Source: Escherichia coli (lineage in GTDB: Bacteria; Pseudomonadota; Gammaproteobacteria; Enterobacterales; Enterobacteriaceae). Taken from it: DNA of 64,000 nucleotides. This document shows, in pieces, positions 17,929 through 64,000 of the stretch (its first letter is position 1; every line of letters starts with the position of its first letter). The stretch is from NCBI RefSeq assembly GCF_030013595.1, contig NZ_CP122770.1. One strand, given 5' to 3'. The translations under genes were made by a program, and so were the position numbers. The notes below the pieces were generated by a model, which ran no database searches, was not told the DNA's origin, and worked only from the letters and a program-made list of their open reading frames with translations.

Positions 17929-18005
17929 AAGCTGTCGCTTATGGCGGAGCGATTGTGCCGTGTATTTATACACTGCACAGGGTTGAATCTCTGGTACGGT
18001 TTCAT
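17916..18005 (-). CDS. repY: RepY leader peptide (29 aa), translationally coupled to repZ
   Basis: ATG at 18005, MKPYQRFNPVQCINTRHNRSAISDSLWQV, stop TGA at 17916-17918 overlapping the repZ 5' region, as expected for the IncI1 repY-repZ arrangement. Confidence 0.7.
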   Translation of the reverse strand: MKPYQRFNPVQCINTRHNRSAISDSLWQV

Positions 18006-18019
18006 TATACTTTACCCGT

Positions 18020-18091
18020 ATTCTGTGAGGCCCCCACTATCTTTCGTCGTTCCGCCAAGTTCGTAAGAAAGATAGTGGGGGTTTTCCTTTT
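18020..18091 (+). ncRNA. inc: Inc antisense RNA (replication-control countertranscript) with terminator hairpin
   Basis: Perfect 15-bp stem CCCCCACTATCTTTC / GAAAGATAGTGGGGG (18031-18081) with loop containing CCGCCAA (complement of the rep-mRNA rUUGGCG loop), followed by TTTTCCTTTT, on the strand opposite the rep mRNA leader. Confidence 0.55.
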
Positions 18092-18745: not shown

Positions 18746-19081
18746 TTTGACGCTTTTTTGTATGTTTTTTAAGCTGTTAGTTGACTCGGTGCGTTATACT
18801 AAGTACCCTTTACTGGTCACAGGCAAAACTGTGATCGGGCGTAGGAACCCGCGTAGTCATCGTCGGCGCAGAAGTTAATTTCTTCATTTGGCGTCGTTTT
18901 TTGCCATACCATAAAGACAGGAACTTGTATTTCTTGTCGTCATCTATGGTAGCTCAGGCGGGGCAGGCATTAGCCTGGCCGGTTTCCGATGACGCCGGTA
19001 TTCCTACCCCCGTCTGGGCTATCACCAATGAGCGTAGGAACTCGGTGATAGCGTTTTTAGTTGTCATCGGAGACCTTTGCT

Positions 19082-36441: not shown

Positions 36442-36591
36442 ACATCATTCAAAACACATACAGAAAGGCGAGTTGCAACAACTCGCCAAACACATTCGAT
36501 CTGCATGATCGAAATTATTCGTTTCACCAGAAAAAACACCGAAGATACAATAACCACATGAGCTGAAAAGACTTTTTCAGTCGGAGGAACA

Positions 36592-37416
36592 ATGAGACTG
36601 AATACGACCGGTATTGCGGCCCGAATGATGCTCTCGCTGGACAAAAAAGCAATCGGCGAAAAACTCATCAACGGTCGTCAGATAAACCCGACACCTCTGC
36701 AGGTCCGTTACCCCCAAGGGGTAAGAGAAGTTCTGGGGATAATGAGCGAACAATTAGCCATATCCACCGCTGATTTAACCCGAATCCTGCTTGAGGATGC
36801 TCTTCATAATATGTTTATGCCTGCGGATAACACCACAGGGAACATAATAAGCAGAATTGAATACATCATGCTGTCGCATGATATAAATGCGCCATTACTG
36901 GCAACATTGCTGTCGCCATGGAATATCCGCTCCACGGTTATACAGGACCCGGCCAGACTTGCAGACTATCTTTCAGCTGACGCTCTCGAACATCTTGCTG
37001 AATGTTTTAATCTCAATCCGGACTGGCTGAATGGCCATGAAAACTATCCGATAGCGTTGTCCGGTGAATGGCCAGATACTGCTGATAATTTCAGAATGCT
37101 TATTAATGATAGCAGCAACACTGAAGTTATTTTCTGGCATAGTTTCCCCTTCGCAGGAAACACGAAAAGAGAATATTACGGGGTAATATTGAGACAGAAA
37201 AAAGAAATAAATGGTTCTGTAATATATCCGGCACTATCATTATCACCAACAATTCTGAACGATGAAAAAAGAAAATGGTTAACTGAATATACAACCAGGC
37301 AGAATACAACAATGTCTTTGCGACGCGTCACGTTGAGACCTGGCCTTGCCGGGAACCTTATTACAGGGCAAATACTACCTGTTAGCTTATTTAATACGTC
37401 TTTATTACCCTGGTAA
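36592..37416 (+). CDS. traE: TraE, transfer protein of unknown function
   Basis: 274-aa ORF, first gene after rci; name by synteny. Confidence 0.65.
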   Translation: MRLNTTGIAARMMLSLDKKAIGEKLINGRQINPTPLQVRYPQGVREVLGIMSEQLAISTADLTRILLEDALHNMFMPADNTTGNIISRIEYIMLSHDINAPLLATLLSPWNIRSTVIQDPARLADYLSADALEHLAECFNLNPDWLNGHENYPIALSGEWPDTADNFRMLINDSSNTEVIFWHSFPFAGNTKREYYGVILRQKKEINGSVIYPALSLSPTILNDEKRKWLTEYTTRQNTTMSLRRVTLRPGLAGNLITGQILPVSLFNTSLLPW

Positions 37417-37501: not shown

Positions 37502-38704
37502 ATGATGAAGAAAAATCATATTACCCGCACCATCATTGCATCTGCTGTATTATTTTCCTTTAACGCTGCAGCAGCGACGTCATATTTTGAAGCACGTAAC
37601 GATGCAATGGGGGGCACCGGGGTAGCATCTTCCCATTATGGTGTGGCACCTCTGGCAAACCCGGCTTTACTGACAAAGCACAACAGCAATGATGATTTCA
37701 GCCTTCTTCTGCCGTCTGTTGGGGCACAAGTTGCTGATCCTGATGATGTATCAAATAAAGCTGATGATGTTAAAGATGACTGGGATTTGTTTGATAGTGC
37801 TGTTGATAACCAGCATGGCGTACAACAGGCAGCAGCAAATCTTAAACATCGTCTGCAGGAATTCCGCAATATCAATGCAGATGCTCAGGTAGGTGTATCA
37901 GCTGTAGCAGCCATGGCAAATGACACTCTGCCGTTTGCCCTTATGGTCAAGTCTTACGGAACTGTCAGCGTAAACGGAAAAGTAAACGATGCAGACCTGG
38001 ATTATCTGGACAAAGTTGCCAATGGAACAATTACCGACGTCGATAAGAATGCCCTGACCTCACGCGCATTCGGGCGTGCAGCTGTAATTACCGACGTCGG
38101 AATTTCATTTGCCAAAGAACTGGAAACGGCCGGACAAAAATGGTCTCTTGGCGTCACACCAAAATATCAGCGTGTGGACCTGTTTAACTACAACGTAACG
38201 GTTCGTGATTACGACAAAGACGATTTTGACGGTGACAAGTACCACAACACGAAAAACGGATTCAACGCCGATATTGGTGCTTATACAGACCTGAATGACA
38301 ACTGGACTGTCGGTCTTGTTGCCCAGAACATCATTCCACGCAGTATTGATACTAAAGTCGTCAATGGCTTTAAAGAAACCTTCAAAGTTCGTCCACAGGC
38401 AACCGCCGGTGTATCCTGGCATAATGACCTGTTTACCACTGCTCTTGACGTTGATCTGACTCCTGCCAGTGGCTTCACTTCTGACAGCAAACGTCAGTTT
38501 GCAAGTGTTGGTGCTGAATTTAACGCATGGAAATGGGCGCAATTGCGTGCCGGTTATCGTCAGAACATGGCATCAAACTCTGGAAGCGCCTTCACCGCTG
38601 GCGTTGGTATCTCTCCATTTGACGTCGTACATATCGATGTTTCCGGCCTGGTAGGAACTGACCACGATTACGGTGCAATGGCACAACTTCAGTTCACTTT
38701 CTGA
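37502..38704 (+). CDS. traF: TraF, putative outer-membrane beta-barrel protein
   Basis: 400-aa protein with signal peptide (..FSFNAAAATS) and C-terminal ..QLQFTF ending in aromatic residue. Confidence 0.7.
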   Translation: MMKKNHITRTIIASAVLFSFNAAAATSYFEARNDAMGGTGVASSHYGVAPLANPALLTKHNSNDDFSLLLPSVGAQVADPDDVSNKADDVKDDWDLFDSAVDNQHGVQQAAANLKHRLQEFRNINADAQVGVSAVAAMANDTLPFALMVKSYGTVSVNGKVNDADLDYLDKVANGTITDVDKNALTSRAFGRAAVITDVGISFAKELETAGQKWSLGVTPKYQRVDLFNYNVTVRDYDKDDFDGDKYHNTKNGFNADIGAYTDLNDNWTVGLVAQNIIPRSIDTKVVNGFKETFKVRPQATAGVSWHNDLFTTALDVDLTPASGFTSDSKRQFASVGAEFNAWKWAQLRAGYRQNMASNSGSAFTAGVGISPFDVVHIDVSGLVGTDHDYGAMAQLQFTF

Positions 38705-38763
38705 TTACTGTCCCCGCCCCCGGCACTAAACCCGGGGGTATTTTTATATTCAGTTTAAATAAC

Positions 38764-39348
38764 ATGATGAAACCACGTTCTTCTTATTCAAAAACAGCAT
38801 TCATTCTTTTATTTTCTGTTTTCCTGGTAGCGGCAGTGACAAAAGCAAAAAGCTCGCTTCCCGATATCACCCTGGAACAGGCAAAAGAAATTAATGCTGA
38901 TAACACCGTTATTTTCCTTTTCCGCCATGGAGAACGTTGCGACCGTTCAGATATGCCATGCTATTCGGATAAAAGCGGAATCACTATTACCGGTACAGAG
39001 AAAGCACAGCAGGAAGGTATTAAGTTCGCAACAATCTTCAGTGAATATGATATTTACTCCAGCAATGCGGTAAGAACCATACAAACTGCAAAATTCTTCT
39101 CCGGTAAAGAACCCGTCGTTATGGACAGTTTATCAGACTGCAATAATGATCTTTATAAGACGCTTGAATCAATCGCAAGAGAATCTCATAAAAGGAACAT
39201 AGTAATAATGACACATAATCATTGTTTATCATTTCTGGCCAGAGATAGGCTCGGCAAGAAATTCAAACCGGCGTACCTTGATGCCCTGATCATGCATTAC
39301 GATGGTACCCGACTCATACTTGACGGAAAATACAACAAAGAGGCATAG
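38764..39348 (+). CDS. traG: TraG, exported protein with a histidine-phosphatase-like RHGE motif
   Basis: Signal peptide then IFLFRHGERCDRSD (RHG catalytic signature of the histidine phosphatase superfamily); name by synteny. Confidence 0.6.
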   Translation: MMKPRSSYSKTAFILLFSVFLVAAVTKAKSSLPDITLEQAKEINADNTVIFLFRHGERCDRSDMPCYSDKSGITITGTEKAQQEGIKFATIFSEYDIYSSNAVRTIQTAKFFSGKEPVVMDSLSDCNNDLYKTLESIARESHKRNIVIMTHNHCLSFLARDRLGKKFKPAYLDALIMHYDGTRLILDGKYNKEA

Positions 39349-39417
39349 AGGATATTTGAATTTACATAAATTCTGATATACTCAGTAAGATACAAGAGTG
39401 TACGGGCACATGTGCCT

Positions 39418-39538
39418 GTCTGAATTGCAGGTTATCCGGACGAGGGCCGGGAACTGTTTCAGGGACAAGCGCCGGTACGTTCGATTCATAAATCGTCGAG
39501 TCATCCATCATGGATCGATTCGGCGCGGAGCGTTAAAG
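39418..39538 (+). repeat. Conserved leader element, copy C, upstream of traH
   Basis: Alignable with copies A and B; preceded by palindrome GGCACATGTGCC (about 39404-39416). Confidence 0.5.
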
Positions 39539-39742
39539 ATTACGCTCATATTCGTTTTATGTCTGACGACACATCAACCAGCCAGTATCAGGAATAATCA
39601 CCTTCAGTAAACTATGAGGCTATTTACCTGGCCACACTGGCATTTATTTCCGGTAACGCAAGTATAGCCGGAAACAAACATCATCCTGTCTGTACCGGAG
39701 CACCGGTATATCCCATTCTGATTTAACTGCTCAGGAATTATT

Positions 39743-40201
39743 ATGAACCGTATTATACCTGCGGGGTGTCTTGCCGCCCTTTTTCTGGCTGGCTGCAACT
39801 CCCCTTCTCAGCATACTCCTGTTCCGCGTAACTACGGTGCTGCCTCTGATGTGGCGGTTACCCGGCACACTCAGTACACATTATGGGACAAAGGTGTGTT
39901 TTCCGGCCAACTTCCGGTTTCAACGGGGTCTCATCTTCTGACAGCTAACAGCGATCGCCTTTCCTTTGACTGGGAAGGTGATGCAATTGAATTACTGAAC
40001 GAACTGGCCAGAGTCAGGGGGATGCAGTTTAACTACAATGGTGTCCGCCTGCCGTTACCAGTCAACCTTCACGTCCGGGATATGACGTTTTCCAATACGT
40101 TGAGACTTATTGAAGCCCAGACAGCCTGGAGAGCAACAATCCATCAATATCCGGGCTTGTTACAGGTCAGCTTCATGCAGCCGGAGAACCGGAAAAAATG
40201 A
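39743..40201 (+). CDS. traH: TraH, lipoprotein (DotD-like)
   Basis: 152-aa protein with lipobox LAGCNSP. Confidence 0.75.
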   Translation: MNRIIPAGCLAALFLAGCNSPSQHTPVPRNYGAASDVAVTRHTQYTLWDKGVFSGQLPVSTGSHLLTANSDRLSFDWEGDAIELLNELARVRGMQFNYNGVRLPLPVNLHVRDMTFSNTLRLIEAQTAWRATIHQYPGLLQVSFMQPENRKK

Positions 40202-62371: not shown

Positions 62372-62459
62372 TGTTAGATACAGACTGTCTTTTCCCGCCC
62401 AGAGCAACCAACTCTGTAGCGGAACAGTAAAAAAGCCGACCTCACCAGTCGGTTTTTTT
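62372..62459 (+). ncRNA. Candidate small RNA unit 1 (promoter to intrinsic terminator, about 88 nt)
   Basis: Sigma70-like promoter TTGACA (62337-62342), 17-nt spacer, TAGAAT (62360-62365); hairpin CAGAG-caaccaa-CTCTG; terminator GCCGAC-ctcacca-GTCGG plus T7 (62435-62459). Confidence 0.35.
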
Positions 62460-62618
62460 ACATCTGTTGTTTCTGCAAATCCGCCCCACCATGCCTGTTA
62501 TACCGGGAAGACTCATGTTCTGGTTACCGTCATCACGACAGAAGTGTCGCCAGACAGTGCTAACCTGCGGATTACAAGGGTGGTTGTTATCAAATGAACA
62601 GAACACTATTATAAGAAC

Positions 62619-62705
62619 GTTAGCTGAAAAGAGATTTCCTCCAGTCAGGGCCACCAACTCTGTAACGGAACAGTAAGAAAACCGACCTCATCAGTCGGTT
62701 TTTTT
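62619..62705 (+). ncRNA. Candidate small RNA unit 2 (paralogue of unit 1)
   Basis: Promoter TTGTTA (62584-62589), 17-nt spacer, TATTAT (62607-62612); conserved 3' block CCACCAACTCTGTAACGGAACAGTAA and terminator (62681-62705). Confidence 0.3.
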
Positions 62706-62771
62706 ACATTTATTACTTCTGAGTAACGACAAGCTGTACGTAGCAAGCTCCCTCTGGCGTGGAGGACGTCA

Positions 62772-62915
62772 GCGGGCTACTATAATGTTGTCTAGGCATT
62801 ACAGTAGAGCCCTTGGTTGATTGATAGAACAATCTCCCGGGGCTTTCACAAACGCTTTCAGCTTACAGCCTCAAGCTCCCCACCGCGATTTTGACGACTT
62901 TCGTATTTTGCAACA
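62772..62915 (+). ncRNA. Toxin-less duplicate of the pnd antisense/leader region (putative orphan Sok/PndB-like antisense RNA)
   Basis: About 85 percent identical over roughly 150 bp to 63735-63900, including the promoter-in-hairpin GGGCTACTATAATG...CATTACAGTAGAGCCC; the minus strand has only a truncated 28-codon mok-like ORF and no hok-like ORF. Confidence 0.4.
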
Positions 62916-62990
62916 ATATCAGGTGGTCAGCCTTTCCCGTAAACTTATGGCATGTTGCATTAATCAGGTAGAACAAATTATCATTTTTAG

Positions 62991-63078
62991 CGTCAGTTAT
63001 AGACAGCTCTTTTCTGGTCAGAGTCATCAACTTTGTAGCGTAACAGTAAAAAAGCCGGCCTCACCAGTCGGTTTTTTT
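62991..63078 (+). ncRNA. Candidate small RNA unit 3 (paralogue of units 1 and 2)
   Basis: Promoter TTGCAT (62955-62960), 18-nt spacer, TATCAT (62979-62984); hairpin CAGAG-tcatcaa-CTTTG; terminator GCCGGCctcaccaGTCGG plus T7 (63053-63078). Confidence 0.35.
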
Positions 63079-63233
63079 ACGTCTTTTGTATCTGCAAAAT
63101 CCGCCCCGCCATGCCCGTCACACCGGGGAAACTCATGCTCTGAACCTGAACCAGCCATCTCAACTTTGCCGTCTTCTGAAAAAACTGGCACATTCAGTTC
63201 GATAACTACCCATAAATACAGAGAGAAAATCCG

Positions 63234-63485
63234 ATGTCAGAAAAGTGGAGTAAAGAATTCGACTCTTGCTTTCAGGTGGGGAGCATAGAAGAAATTGCCG
63301 ATGCTCTCGAGAAACGCAGCGGAAGCGAGGAAAACGCGTTAGCCATGCTGGCAATGACAGCCTTCACACTCATGACCCGACGTGGTATCTGCGAAATGCA
63401 GAACGTGGCCCCCGATGGCAAAGGCATTCGGCTGGAGCTAATCGGCTTCAGGGGAAATGAAACAATACCGGATACGCTTCATTGA
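63234..63485 (+). CDS. Hypothetical 83-aa protein
   Basis: ORF followed by hairpin GCGGCGGCAG-aaaacc-CTGCCGCCG (63523-63548) that could also terminate the convergent pnd transcript; RBS weak. Confidence 0.3.
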   Translation: MSEKWSKEFDSCFQVGSIEEIADALEKRSGSEENALAMLAMTAFTLMTRRGICEMQNVAPDGKGIRLELIGFRGNETIPDTLH

Positions 63486-63556
63486 AGAAGAAAGGGCGCA
63501 ATGAGGTCAGCCTTCGCAACAAAGCGGCGGCAGAAAACCTGCCGCCGTGTTGCCCG

Positions 63557-63709
63557 TTAACGTTTAACTTCGTAGGCTAACGTTGCCACAAGCACTGTGT
63601 TTCCCTGCTGGAGCCGGAGTACGCAAAGCGAATCCCTCACCATCCAGACAAAACACAGAATCGTCACACAGATGACGATTAACATCATTAAAAACGTTCG
63701 CTGTGGCAT
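63557..63709 (-). CDS. pndA: PndA, Hok/Gef-family type I toxin (50 aa)
   Basis: MPQRTFLMMLIVICVTILCFVWMVRDSLCVLRLQQGNTVLVATLAYEVKR, matching the Hok family TM helix, SLC motif and LAYE C-terminus; found by manual translation (below the ORF-track cut-off). Confidence 0.9.
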   Translation of the reverse strand: MPQRTFLMMLIVICVTILCFVWMVRDSLCVLRLQQGNTVLVATLAYEVKR

Positions 63710-63767
63710 CATAGCCCCTCCATTGCCTTACGGCGGTTATCGGGCTACTATAATGTTGTCGAAGCAT
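63564..63767 (-). CDS. pndC: PndC, Mok-like overlapping reading frame needed for pndA translation
   Basis: ORF in another frame overlapping nearly all of pndA and ending 7 nt before its stop; start taken at the internal ATG (63767) within the antisense target region; start uncertain (ORF-track ATG at 63848). Confidence 0.45.
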   Translation of the reverse strand: MLRQHYSSPITAVRQWRGYDATANVFNDVNRHLCDDSVFCLDGEGFALRTPAPAGKHSACGNVSLRS

Positions 63768-63815
63768 TACAGTAGAGCCCTTGGTTGATTGATAAAAAAA
63801 TCTCCAGGGGCTTTC
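63748..63815 (+). ncRNA. pndB: PndB/Sok-like antisense RNA with promoter embedded in a hairpin
   Basis: TATAAT at 63748-63753 on the strand opposite pndCA; predicted transcript overlaps the pndC start region and ends at stem CCCTTGG...CCAGGGG followed by CTTTCT. Confidence 0.45.
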
Positions 63816-64000
63816 TGCTGTATACCGTCCACAAAACGCTTTCGGCATACAGCCTCAAGCGCCCGCAGCTATTCTAACGACTTTCGTATCTGCAACAATC
63901 CTTTTATCACACGGCTAATTCCTCTGGTTAGCTCTTATCGCCTGCAAATAAATTTTTAACCTTTCCGTTTGATTTAAATTCCAGAAATGGAGACTTTGTC

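Follow-up and report, generated by a model that had tools for sequence, protein, structure and literature searches.

TraG of IncI1 plasmids: a predicted exported histidine phosphatase of the Ais/PmrG subfamily in a variable slot of the type IVB transfer region

Introduction

Why should a conjugation cluster contain a gene for what appears to be an exported phosphatase? The question arises at the traG position of the type IVB transfer region carried on a 64,000-nucleotide stretch of Escherichia coli DNA (hereafter the window; contig NZ_CP122770.1 of RefSeq assembly GCF_030013595.1). An initial annotation of this stretch treated traG as a conjugation-apparatus gene, remarked on a signal peptide and an RHGE catalytic signature in its product, and suggested an enzymatic accessory function such as removing phosphate from a substrate in the periplasm or at the surface. 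The phosphatase homology of IncI1 TraG is already known from RefSeq, GenBank and a 2014 TnSeq paper (PMC4288162), and existing labels for the protein include “histidine phosphatase family protein” (RefSeq), “predicted phosphatase” and “LPS core heptose(II)-phosphate phosphatase”. Here we ask which kind of phosphatase TraG is, where in the cell it would act, and whether it belongs to the transfer machine at all; our small additions to what is on record are the cassette-like variability of the gene, a second paralogue in the slot between traF and traH, and a deletion allele that removes Cys66.

Results

The window carries the known IncI1 traG locus

Just where the initial annotation had placed it, the open reading frame sits where traG is expected in the type IVB transfer region of an IncI1 plasmid, between traF and the DotD-like traH in the co-oriented series traE, traF, traG, traH, traI and traJ (Table 1). 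The product of traJ is a DotB/PilT-like ATPase (TIGR02525, 581 bits), and the replicon is of IncI type, as marked by a PK-repZ element at 17941–18089 (Rfam; pseudoknot score 194 bits). Further Rfam matches in the window, at 18942–19029 and 62374–63864, comprise a C4 antisense RNA, two sok antitoxin RNAs and two AgrB antisense RNAs; no Rfam family was found in or near traG. On the upstream side, TraF is recognized by Pfam TraF_2 at 246 bits and bears similarities to the PorV/PorQ family and to Omp85 that both stay below cut-off, while profile searches with TraE matched no family. In base composition traG (GC ~0.38–0.40) is more AT-rich than traH–traJ (~0.50).

The gene is a familiar one. Its DNA is 100% identical at the nucleotide level to traG of ColIb-P9 (NC_002122.1; protein WP_000977522.1), R64 matched perfectly over the 44-nt traG segment tested, and ColIb-P9, R64 and pESBL carry the same gene in the same traE–traF–traG–traH order as the window, with no difference. 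Across PLSDB we found traG in 1373 plasmids, mainly from Escherichia and Salmonella, 1343 of which are typed conjugative, and at least 80% of the traG length is intact in 1359 of these records. Among complete E. coli genomes, 780 of 5426 (~14%) carry the gene, and 827 of the 831 places where it occurs are plasmid-borne.

Table 1 Features of the traG locus, in window coordinates
Feature	Position	Strand	Description
traE (context)	36592..37416	+	without family match; dispensable
traF (context)	37502..38704	+	predicted outer-membrane beta-barrel; dispensable for transfer
Terminator-like GC-rich hairpin	38716..38739	+	between traF stop and traG start; 8 pairs, 7 of them G-C, then a T-run
traG CDS	38764..39348	+	intact ORF with ATG start, 194 aa plus stop; Ais/PmrG-subfamily histidine phosphatase
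Predicted Sec signal sequence	38764..38847	+	residues 1 to ~28; candidate cleavage after VAA24 or TKA28
RHGER motif, R54-H55-G56-E57-R58	38923..38937	+	H55 is the predicted phospho-accepting nucleophile
Deletable segment SDMPCY, residues 62–67	38947..38964	+	18 bp, includes near-invariant Cys66; a common natural allele lacks it through an in-frame deletion
THNHC motif, T150-H151-N152-H153-C154	39211..39225	+	holds the predicted second active-site His of the superfamily
traG–traH spacer	39349..39742	+	394 bp, non-coding; in the cassette-like allele, divergent along with traG
traH (context)	39743..40201	+	DotD-like lipoprotein; opens the essential traH-to-trbC block

TraG belongs to the Ais/PmrG subfamily of histidine phosphatases

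Profile searches place TraG in a single enzyme family along its whole length. It scores 295.1 bits against NCBIfam NF011945 (Ais/PmrG, LPS core heptose(II)-phosphate phosphatase), compared with a cut-off of 142 (E = 2.2e-88), in an alignment that spans TraG residues 1–192 and profile positions 4–200; by comparison, the same model gives K-12 Ais 392 bits and Citrobacter Ais 342. The histidine phosphatases at large are also recovered, Pfam PF00300 (His_Phos_1) reaching 35.1 bits against a gathering score of 21.7 (E = 1.4e-08) over residues 50–123 only. A second NCBIfam model, the “PmrG” equivalog NF052369, has a cut-off of 170 bits that TraG (123.7) does not reach. We rejected this model as a discriminator: K-12 Ais (145.8) and Citrobacter Ais (144.8) likewise fall short, so it cannot separate TraG from the enterobacterial enzymes. 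In pairwise comparison, the E. coli K-12 Ais protein (reference taken from the canonical ais place beside arnBCA) matches TraG at 43% identity across the entire mature domain (164 residues; E = 2e-51), the alignment needing a gap of just one residue; the Citrobacter homologue likewise sits in a canonical ais–arnBCA locus (P0030 in our protein set).

The RHGE signature that had been noticed proved to be part of RHGER, in which R54, H55 and R58 are invariant. Across the 13-sequence alignment of homologues, C59, D60, T150, H151, H153 and C154 are invariant as well, and R104 is almost so; from its position and the fold, the THNHC motif is predicted to hold the counterpart of the second catalytic His of branch-1 enzymes. 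Cysteines 59, 66, 126 and 154 are conserved in the same alignment, and this set of four fits a protein of an oxidizing compartment such as the periplasm. With Salmonella PmrG and E. coli Ais, TraG shares not only NF011945 and its length but also the layout of a signal sequence followed by a catalytic domain of ~165 residues, together with the motifs RH[GA]ERCDRS and THNHC and the four cysteines.

Structure prediction leads to the same family. The AF2 model of TraG (pLDDT 89, pTM 0.81) has an alpha/beta, phosphoglycerate-mutase-like fold that matches histidine phosphatases only, every top PDB match returned by Foldseek being a histidine phosphatase with probability 1.0. Among these relatives, PhoE (1h2e), SixA (1ujc), CobC (6e4b) and RosC (8s6q) differ from TraG in being cytoplasmic, are 12–22% identical to it, and are without the signal sequence and the conserved cysteines. 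Sequence searches of the PDB, both with TraG and with the 13-sequence profile, gave no meaningful match; no structure of the Ais/PmrG subfamily has been solved, and the fold comparison therefore relied on the predicted model. On its own, a motif of four residues would carry little weight, and the initial annotation had allowed that the resemblance might extend no further; with the full-length profile match at E = 2.2e-88, the RHGER match is not due to chance. From the profile matches, the 43% identity to K-12 Ais and the fold matches, we assign TraG to branch 1 of the histidine phosphatases, Ais/PmrG subfamily, with high confidence.

Within this subfamily, TraG is a paralogue and not an orthologue of chromosomal Ais/PmrG. 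Profile, signal and motifs agree with those enzymes, whereas locus and regulon do not: PmrG/Ais is chromosomal, lies beside arnBCADTEF and belongs to the PmrA regulon, while TraG is plasmid-borne between traF and traH and has no PmrA box. The immediate neighbours of chromosomal ais are arnB and nudI, those of TraG are traF and traH, and a simple tree keeps the TraG clade apart from that of the ais locus.

TraG is predicted to face the periplasm

The signal peptide claimed for the protein is borne out by the features expected of a Sec signal. The N-terminus reads MMKPRSSYSK-TAFILLFSVFLVAAV-TKA, then KSS, in the three-part layout of such signals, with three positive charges in the n-region, a hydrophobic core of 15 residues (11-mer Kyte–Doolittle mean up to 3.06) and small residues at the possible −3/−1 positions (VAA or TKA). 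In the AlphaFold model, residues 7–29 form a lone helix. A hydropathy scan revealed no second hydrophobic segment, the next best 19-mer scoring 0.49. The signal region contains neither a Cys nor a lipobox, which ruled out TraG as a lipoprotein. All TraG homologues compared keep a hydrophobic N-terminus and the NF011945 alignment begins at TraG residue 1, for which reasons we prefer the long ATG start at 38764 and set aside the GTG start at 38836 given in one GenBank record. On these sequence features, the catalytic domain is predicted to face the periplasm whether the signal is cleaved or is kept as a signal-anchor.

traG is dispensable for conjugation

The one claim of the initial annotation that did not survive is that traG is a conjugation-apparatus gene. 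A structural or assembly role, in which a phosphatase-like fold would serve the type IVB machine, is suggested by the historical gene name, by the position in the tra cluster and by co-orientation with traE–traF and traH–traJ, but it is contradicted by genetics. In TnSeq of the IncI1 plasmid pESBL, TraG received scores of 0.79 as non-essential, 0.21 for maintenance and 0.00 as required for transfer, insertions in traG leaving transfer unreduced; TraE and TraF were also non-essential (TraF score 1.00), whereas traH–traK were required (PMC4288162). A passage of PMC6112013 that cites Komano et al. 2000 states that R64 transfer does not require traEFG and that homologues of the three genes are absent from the IncM plasmid pCTX-M3. 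IncL/M plasmids are without traEFG.

Comparative evidence points the same way. A search in distant mode for traF, traG and traH returned hundreds of plasmids in which the traF and traH matches lie much closer together than here, and in four that we inspected the traF-to-traH gap measured 103 bp (IncI-gamma/K1), 358 and 547 bp (IncK2/Z) and 520 bp (untyped replicon), with no TraG remnant in three (L013, L014 and L016, all typed conjugative) and a short remnant in the fourth (L015). Many conjugative MPF_I plasmids lack the gene. Furthermore, profile searches with TraG matched phosphatase families only and no T4SS family. The apparatus role is already contradicted for standard matings, and we regard it as very improbable overall. 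traG is instead an accessory passenger of a variable traF–traH slot, outside the type IVB channel and not needed for laboratory transfer, and given this dispensability a point mutant in the RHG motif would be expected to show no effect in standard matings. As all three genes are dispensable, traE–traF–traG may constitute an envelope-related accessory unit.

Non-coding DNA on either side of traG

A terminator-like hairpin separates traF from traG. In each of the seven I-complex loci compared (the window, L003, L009 and L013–L016), such a hairpin comes after traF, with or without traG. The stem sequences of these hairpins vary while their complementarity is kept, and the T-run occurs only in the IncI1-type copies (the window and L015). 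Ahead of traE, a promoter-like site at 36523–36551 is accompanied by a strong ribosome-binding site; a sigma-70 scan of the interval from the traF hairpin to traG detected no promoter, and no obvious Shine–Dalgarno sequence lies upstream of traG. Without such signals, expression of traG must use read-through or an unrecognized promoter. Two regulators with known sites were also considered. With up to one mismatch allowed, no PmrA box (YTTAAK-N5-YTTAAK) occurs upstream of traG, and the six matches across the window are at chance level. An RfaH ops element has been reported for the IncI1 “tra promoter” (PMC6768964); in the window, a single site with one mismatch to this element (GGCGGTAGNNTG) lies on the opposite strand inside traF, again at chance level.

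Downstream, the spacer between traG and traH holds no convincing ORF and no Rfam match. A spacer ~67% similar to it precedes traH in a plasmid without traG (L016), and the window spacer probably serves to regulate the essential traH-to-trbC block.

The content of the traF–traH slot varies

Comparison with an IncI1-like contig (L009) revealed a sharply bounded region of divergence. TraE, TraF, TraH, TraI and TraJ of this contig are 97–99.8% identical to their window counterparts (dS 0.03–0.15), whereas its TraG is only 72% identical at the amino-acid level (dS 1.05, dN 0.16, dN/dS 0.15). The divergent block, ~1.07 kb long (window 38705–39775 compared with L009:4945–6080), comprises traG and the traG–traH spacer; its left edge coincides with the traF stop and its right edge falls a short way into traH. 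It looks as though traG and its downstream spacer form an exchangeable cassette or have undergone recombinational allele exchange.

A different occupant of the slot was found in the IncK2/Z plasmid CP057134.1 (L003:6914–7492), where a 192-aa Ais-family gene, 41–44% identical to IncI1 TraG, lies among neighbours that are 57–86% identical to their window counterparts. At ≥99% identity this paralogue occurs in three PLSDB records only. It shares the slot with IncI1 TraG yet is no closer to it (44%) than to the other paralogues compared (39–45%), and it falls outside the IncI1 TraG clade in a simple distance tree of 10 sequences, computed without support values. Independent recruitment of Ais-family genes to the traF–traH slot in IncI1 and IncK2/Z is thus possible.

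Copies were also found outside any tra cluster. On a contig of E. coli GCA_036611895.1, a 771-bp fragment (L018:2819–3587) in which 120 bp from the end of traF and the hairpin precede an intact traG, at 87% nucleotide identity, adjoins GspC-like, pseudopilin-like and ABC ATPase genes. Two further E. coli paralogues of the Ais family have other surroundings, the first (P0033; L004–L006; 817 blocks of the contig collection) having two hydrolase genes and a SPATE autotransporter gene as neighbours, and the second (P0020; L011–L012) in an island beside genes for AraC-, LuxR- and GrlA-type regulators. Together with the IncK2/Z protein, these mobile paralogues are 39–60% identical to IncI1 TraG, all exceed the NF011945 cut-off and all keep the catalytic residues; the Ais family is repeatedly mobilized in Enterobacteriaceae. 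One further variant, 86% identical (P0005), was put aside as a probable error-rich assembly, its backbone being 98% identical over 6.6 kb and its traF not called.

Within IncI1, a common allele has lost 18 bp in frame. The deletion, flanked by short TC(A/G)GAT repeats, yields a 188-aa protein without Cys66 (cluster P0002, 365 member sequences compared with 1403 in the full-length cluster). Of the 1373 traG-bearing PLSDB records, 1077 contain the 44-nt segment in intact form; the shortfall also counts SNPs within the segment and truncations, and the share of the deletion is therefore ~14–22% of plasmid copies. An allele lacking Cys66 in what appears to be about a fifth of natural copies suggests that TraG activity is not strongly selected everywhere.

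These observations bear on whether traG does anything at all. A drifting or functionless gene, poorly expressed behind the traF terminator and contributing nothing to the fitness of plasmid or host, would accord with its dispensability for transfer, with its loss or reduction to a remnant in related plasmids, with the hairpin directly upstream and the lack of a recognizable promoter or ribosome-binding site, and with the frequency of the Cys66 deletion. Several features of the gene speak against this: the catalytic residues are all invariant, the match extends over 80% or more of the gene in 99% of the 1373 plasmids, the 87%-identical copy outside the tra context has been kept intact, and a second, unrelated paralogue fills the same slot in IncK2/Z. 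The dN/dS of 0.15, measured where synonymous divergence is at a saturating level (dS ~1), argues that IncI1 traG is under purifying selection. We consider a functionless gene unlikely.

Discussion

We think it probable, by analogy with Salmonella PmrG, that TraG is an exported phosphatase of the Ais/PmrG type that dephosphorylates heptose II (Hep II) of the host LPS inner core in the periplasm. The Sec pathway would export the protein and leave its catalytic domain in the periplasm; by homology, His55 of the RHG motif would attack the phosphomonoester to give a phospho-histidine intermediate, and Arg54, Arg58 and Arg104 with the His151/His153 pair would hold the phosphate and aid its release. 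The most likely substrate would be the heptose II phosphate in the LPS inner core of the plasmid-carrying cell itself, removal of which would make the LPS core less negatively charged. An accessory phosphatase acting in the periplasm or at the surface, as the initial annotation proposed, is supported to the extent that PmrG, the nearest characterized relative, does just this, removing phosphate from Hep II of the Salmonella LPS core according to a passage of PMC8129183 that cites Nishino 2006. The K-12 orthologue of PmrG still carries the label “putative”, and the literature we searched contains no report of Hep II phosphate removal by TraG. Nor did we find a role for traG in studies of IncI1 phage-type change (PMC8004404), I-complex TraDIS (PMC10286972), early-conjugation transcriptomics (PMC12672017) or cefotaxime proteomics (PMC5712592).

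At 43–47% identity to chromosomal Ais proteins, the substrate specificity of TraG could differ from theirs. With the same fold and chemistry, a periplasmic histidine phosphatase might act instead on another phosphorylated envelope substrate, for example the phosphate or pyrophosphoethanolamine on Hep I, the phosphates of lipid A, a carrier lipid in phosphorylated form, or a phosphoprotein or pilin that belongs to the transfer system. Besides the limited identity, the separation of the IncI1 TraG clade from the ais-locus clade, the absence of a PmrA box and the great diversity of substrates among minimal-fold histidine phosphatases (SixA, PhoE, CobC and RosC) are consistent with such a shift. 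On the other side, the NF011945 score of TraG tops those of the other mobile paralogues tested (257 down to 172 bits), its whole mature domain aligns to K-12 Ais with that one single-residue gap, and the subfamily-specific cysteine pattern and CDRS and THNHC motifs are retained. A different substrate is accordingly a possibility of lesser weight, and the Hep II phosphate of the LPS core is the one we favour.

What a plasmid might gain from LPS-core dephosphorylation is more speculative; candidate benefits are a host with altered surface charge or metal tolerance, or tuned contacts that depend on the LPS core. Regarding the latter, the PilV adhesins of I-complex thin pili bind LPS core structures, one IncI2 variant binding the HepII-HepI-4-phosphate unit (PMC10654706). 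In the IncI2 plasmid TP114, recognition by PilVA′ does not need the Hep II phosphate of the recipient (PMC10654706), which weakens a benefit exerted through the pilus receptor. In the IncI1 plasmid pTF2, cefotaxime-induced up-regulation of traF needs the host genes waaP and waaQ (PMC6768964). PilV binding and the dependence on waaP and waaQ together make a link between the LPS core and I-type conjugation plausible, without implicating TraG in it.

An extension of the favoured account would hold that the traF–traH slot has recruited Ais-family phosphatases more than once and swaps them as cassettes, remodelling of the donor's own LPS serving to tune an LPS-dependent step of conjugation. Possible steps are the keeping of PilV off donor cells, a change in the entry of competing plasmids or of phages that use the LPS core, and tra control that depends on waaP and waaQ. 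An effect on donor LPS would escape standard filter matings to K-12. We nevertheless consider this extension quite unlikely.

As for nomenclature, the label “transfer protein” would be better replaced by “LPS-core phosphatase paralogue”, the activity being putative. In E. coli and Salmonella, IncI1 plasmids rank among the main vehicles of ESBL and AmpC genes. If it is true that TraG strips the Hep II phosphate, these plasmids would impose a change in outer-membrane charge on every such host, with possible effects on tolerance to metals or cationic peptides, on phage or colicin receptors, and on the LPS structures seen by I-type thin pili.
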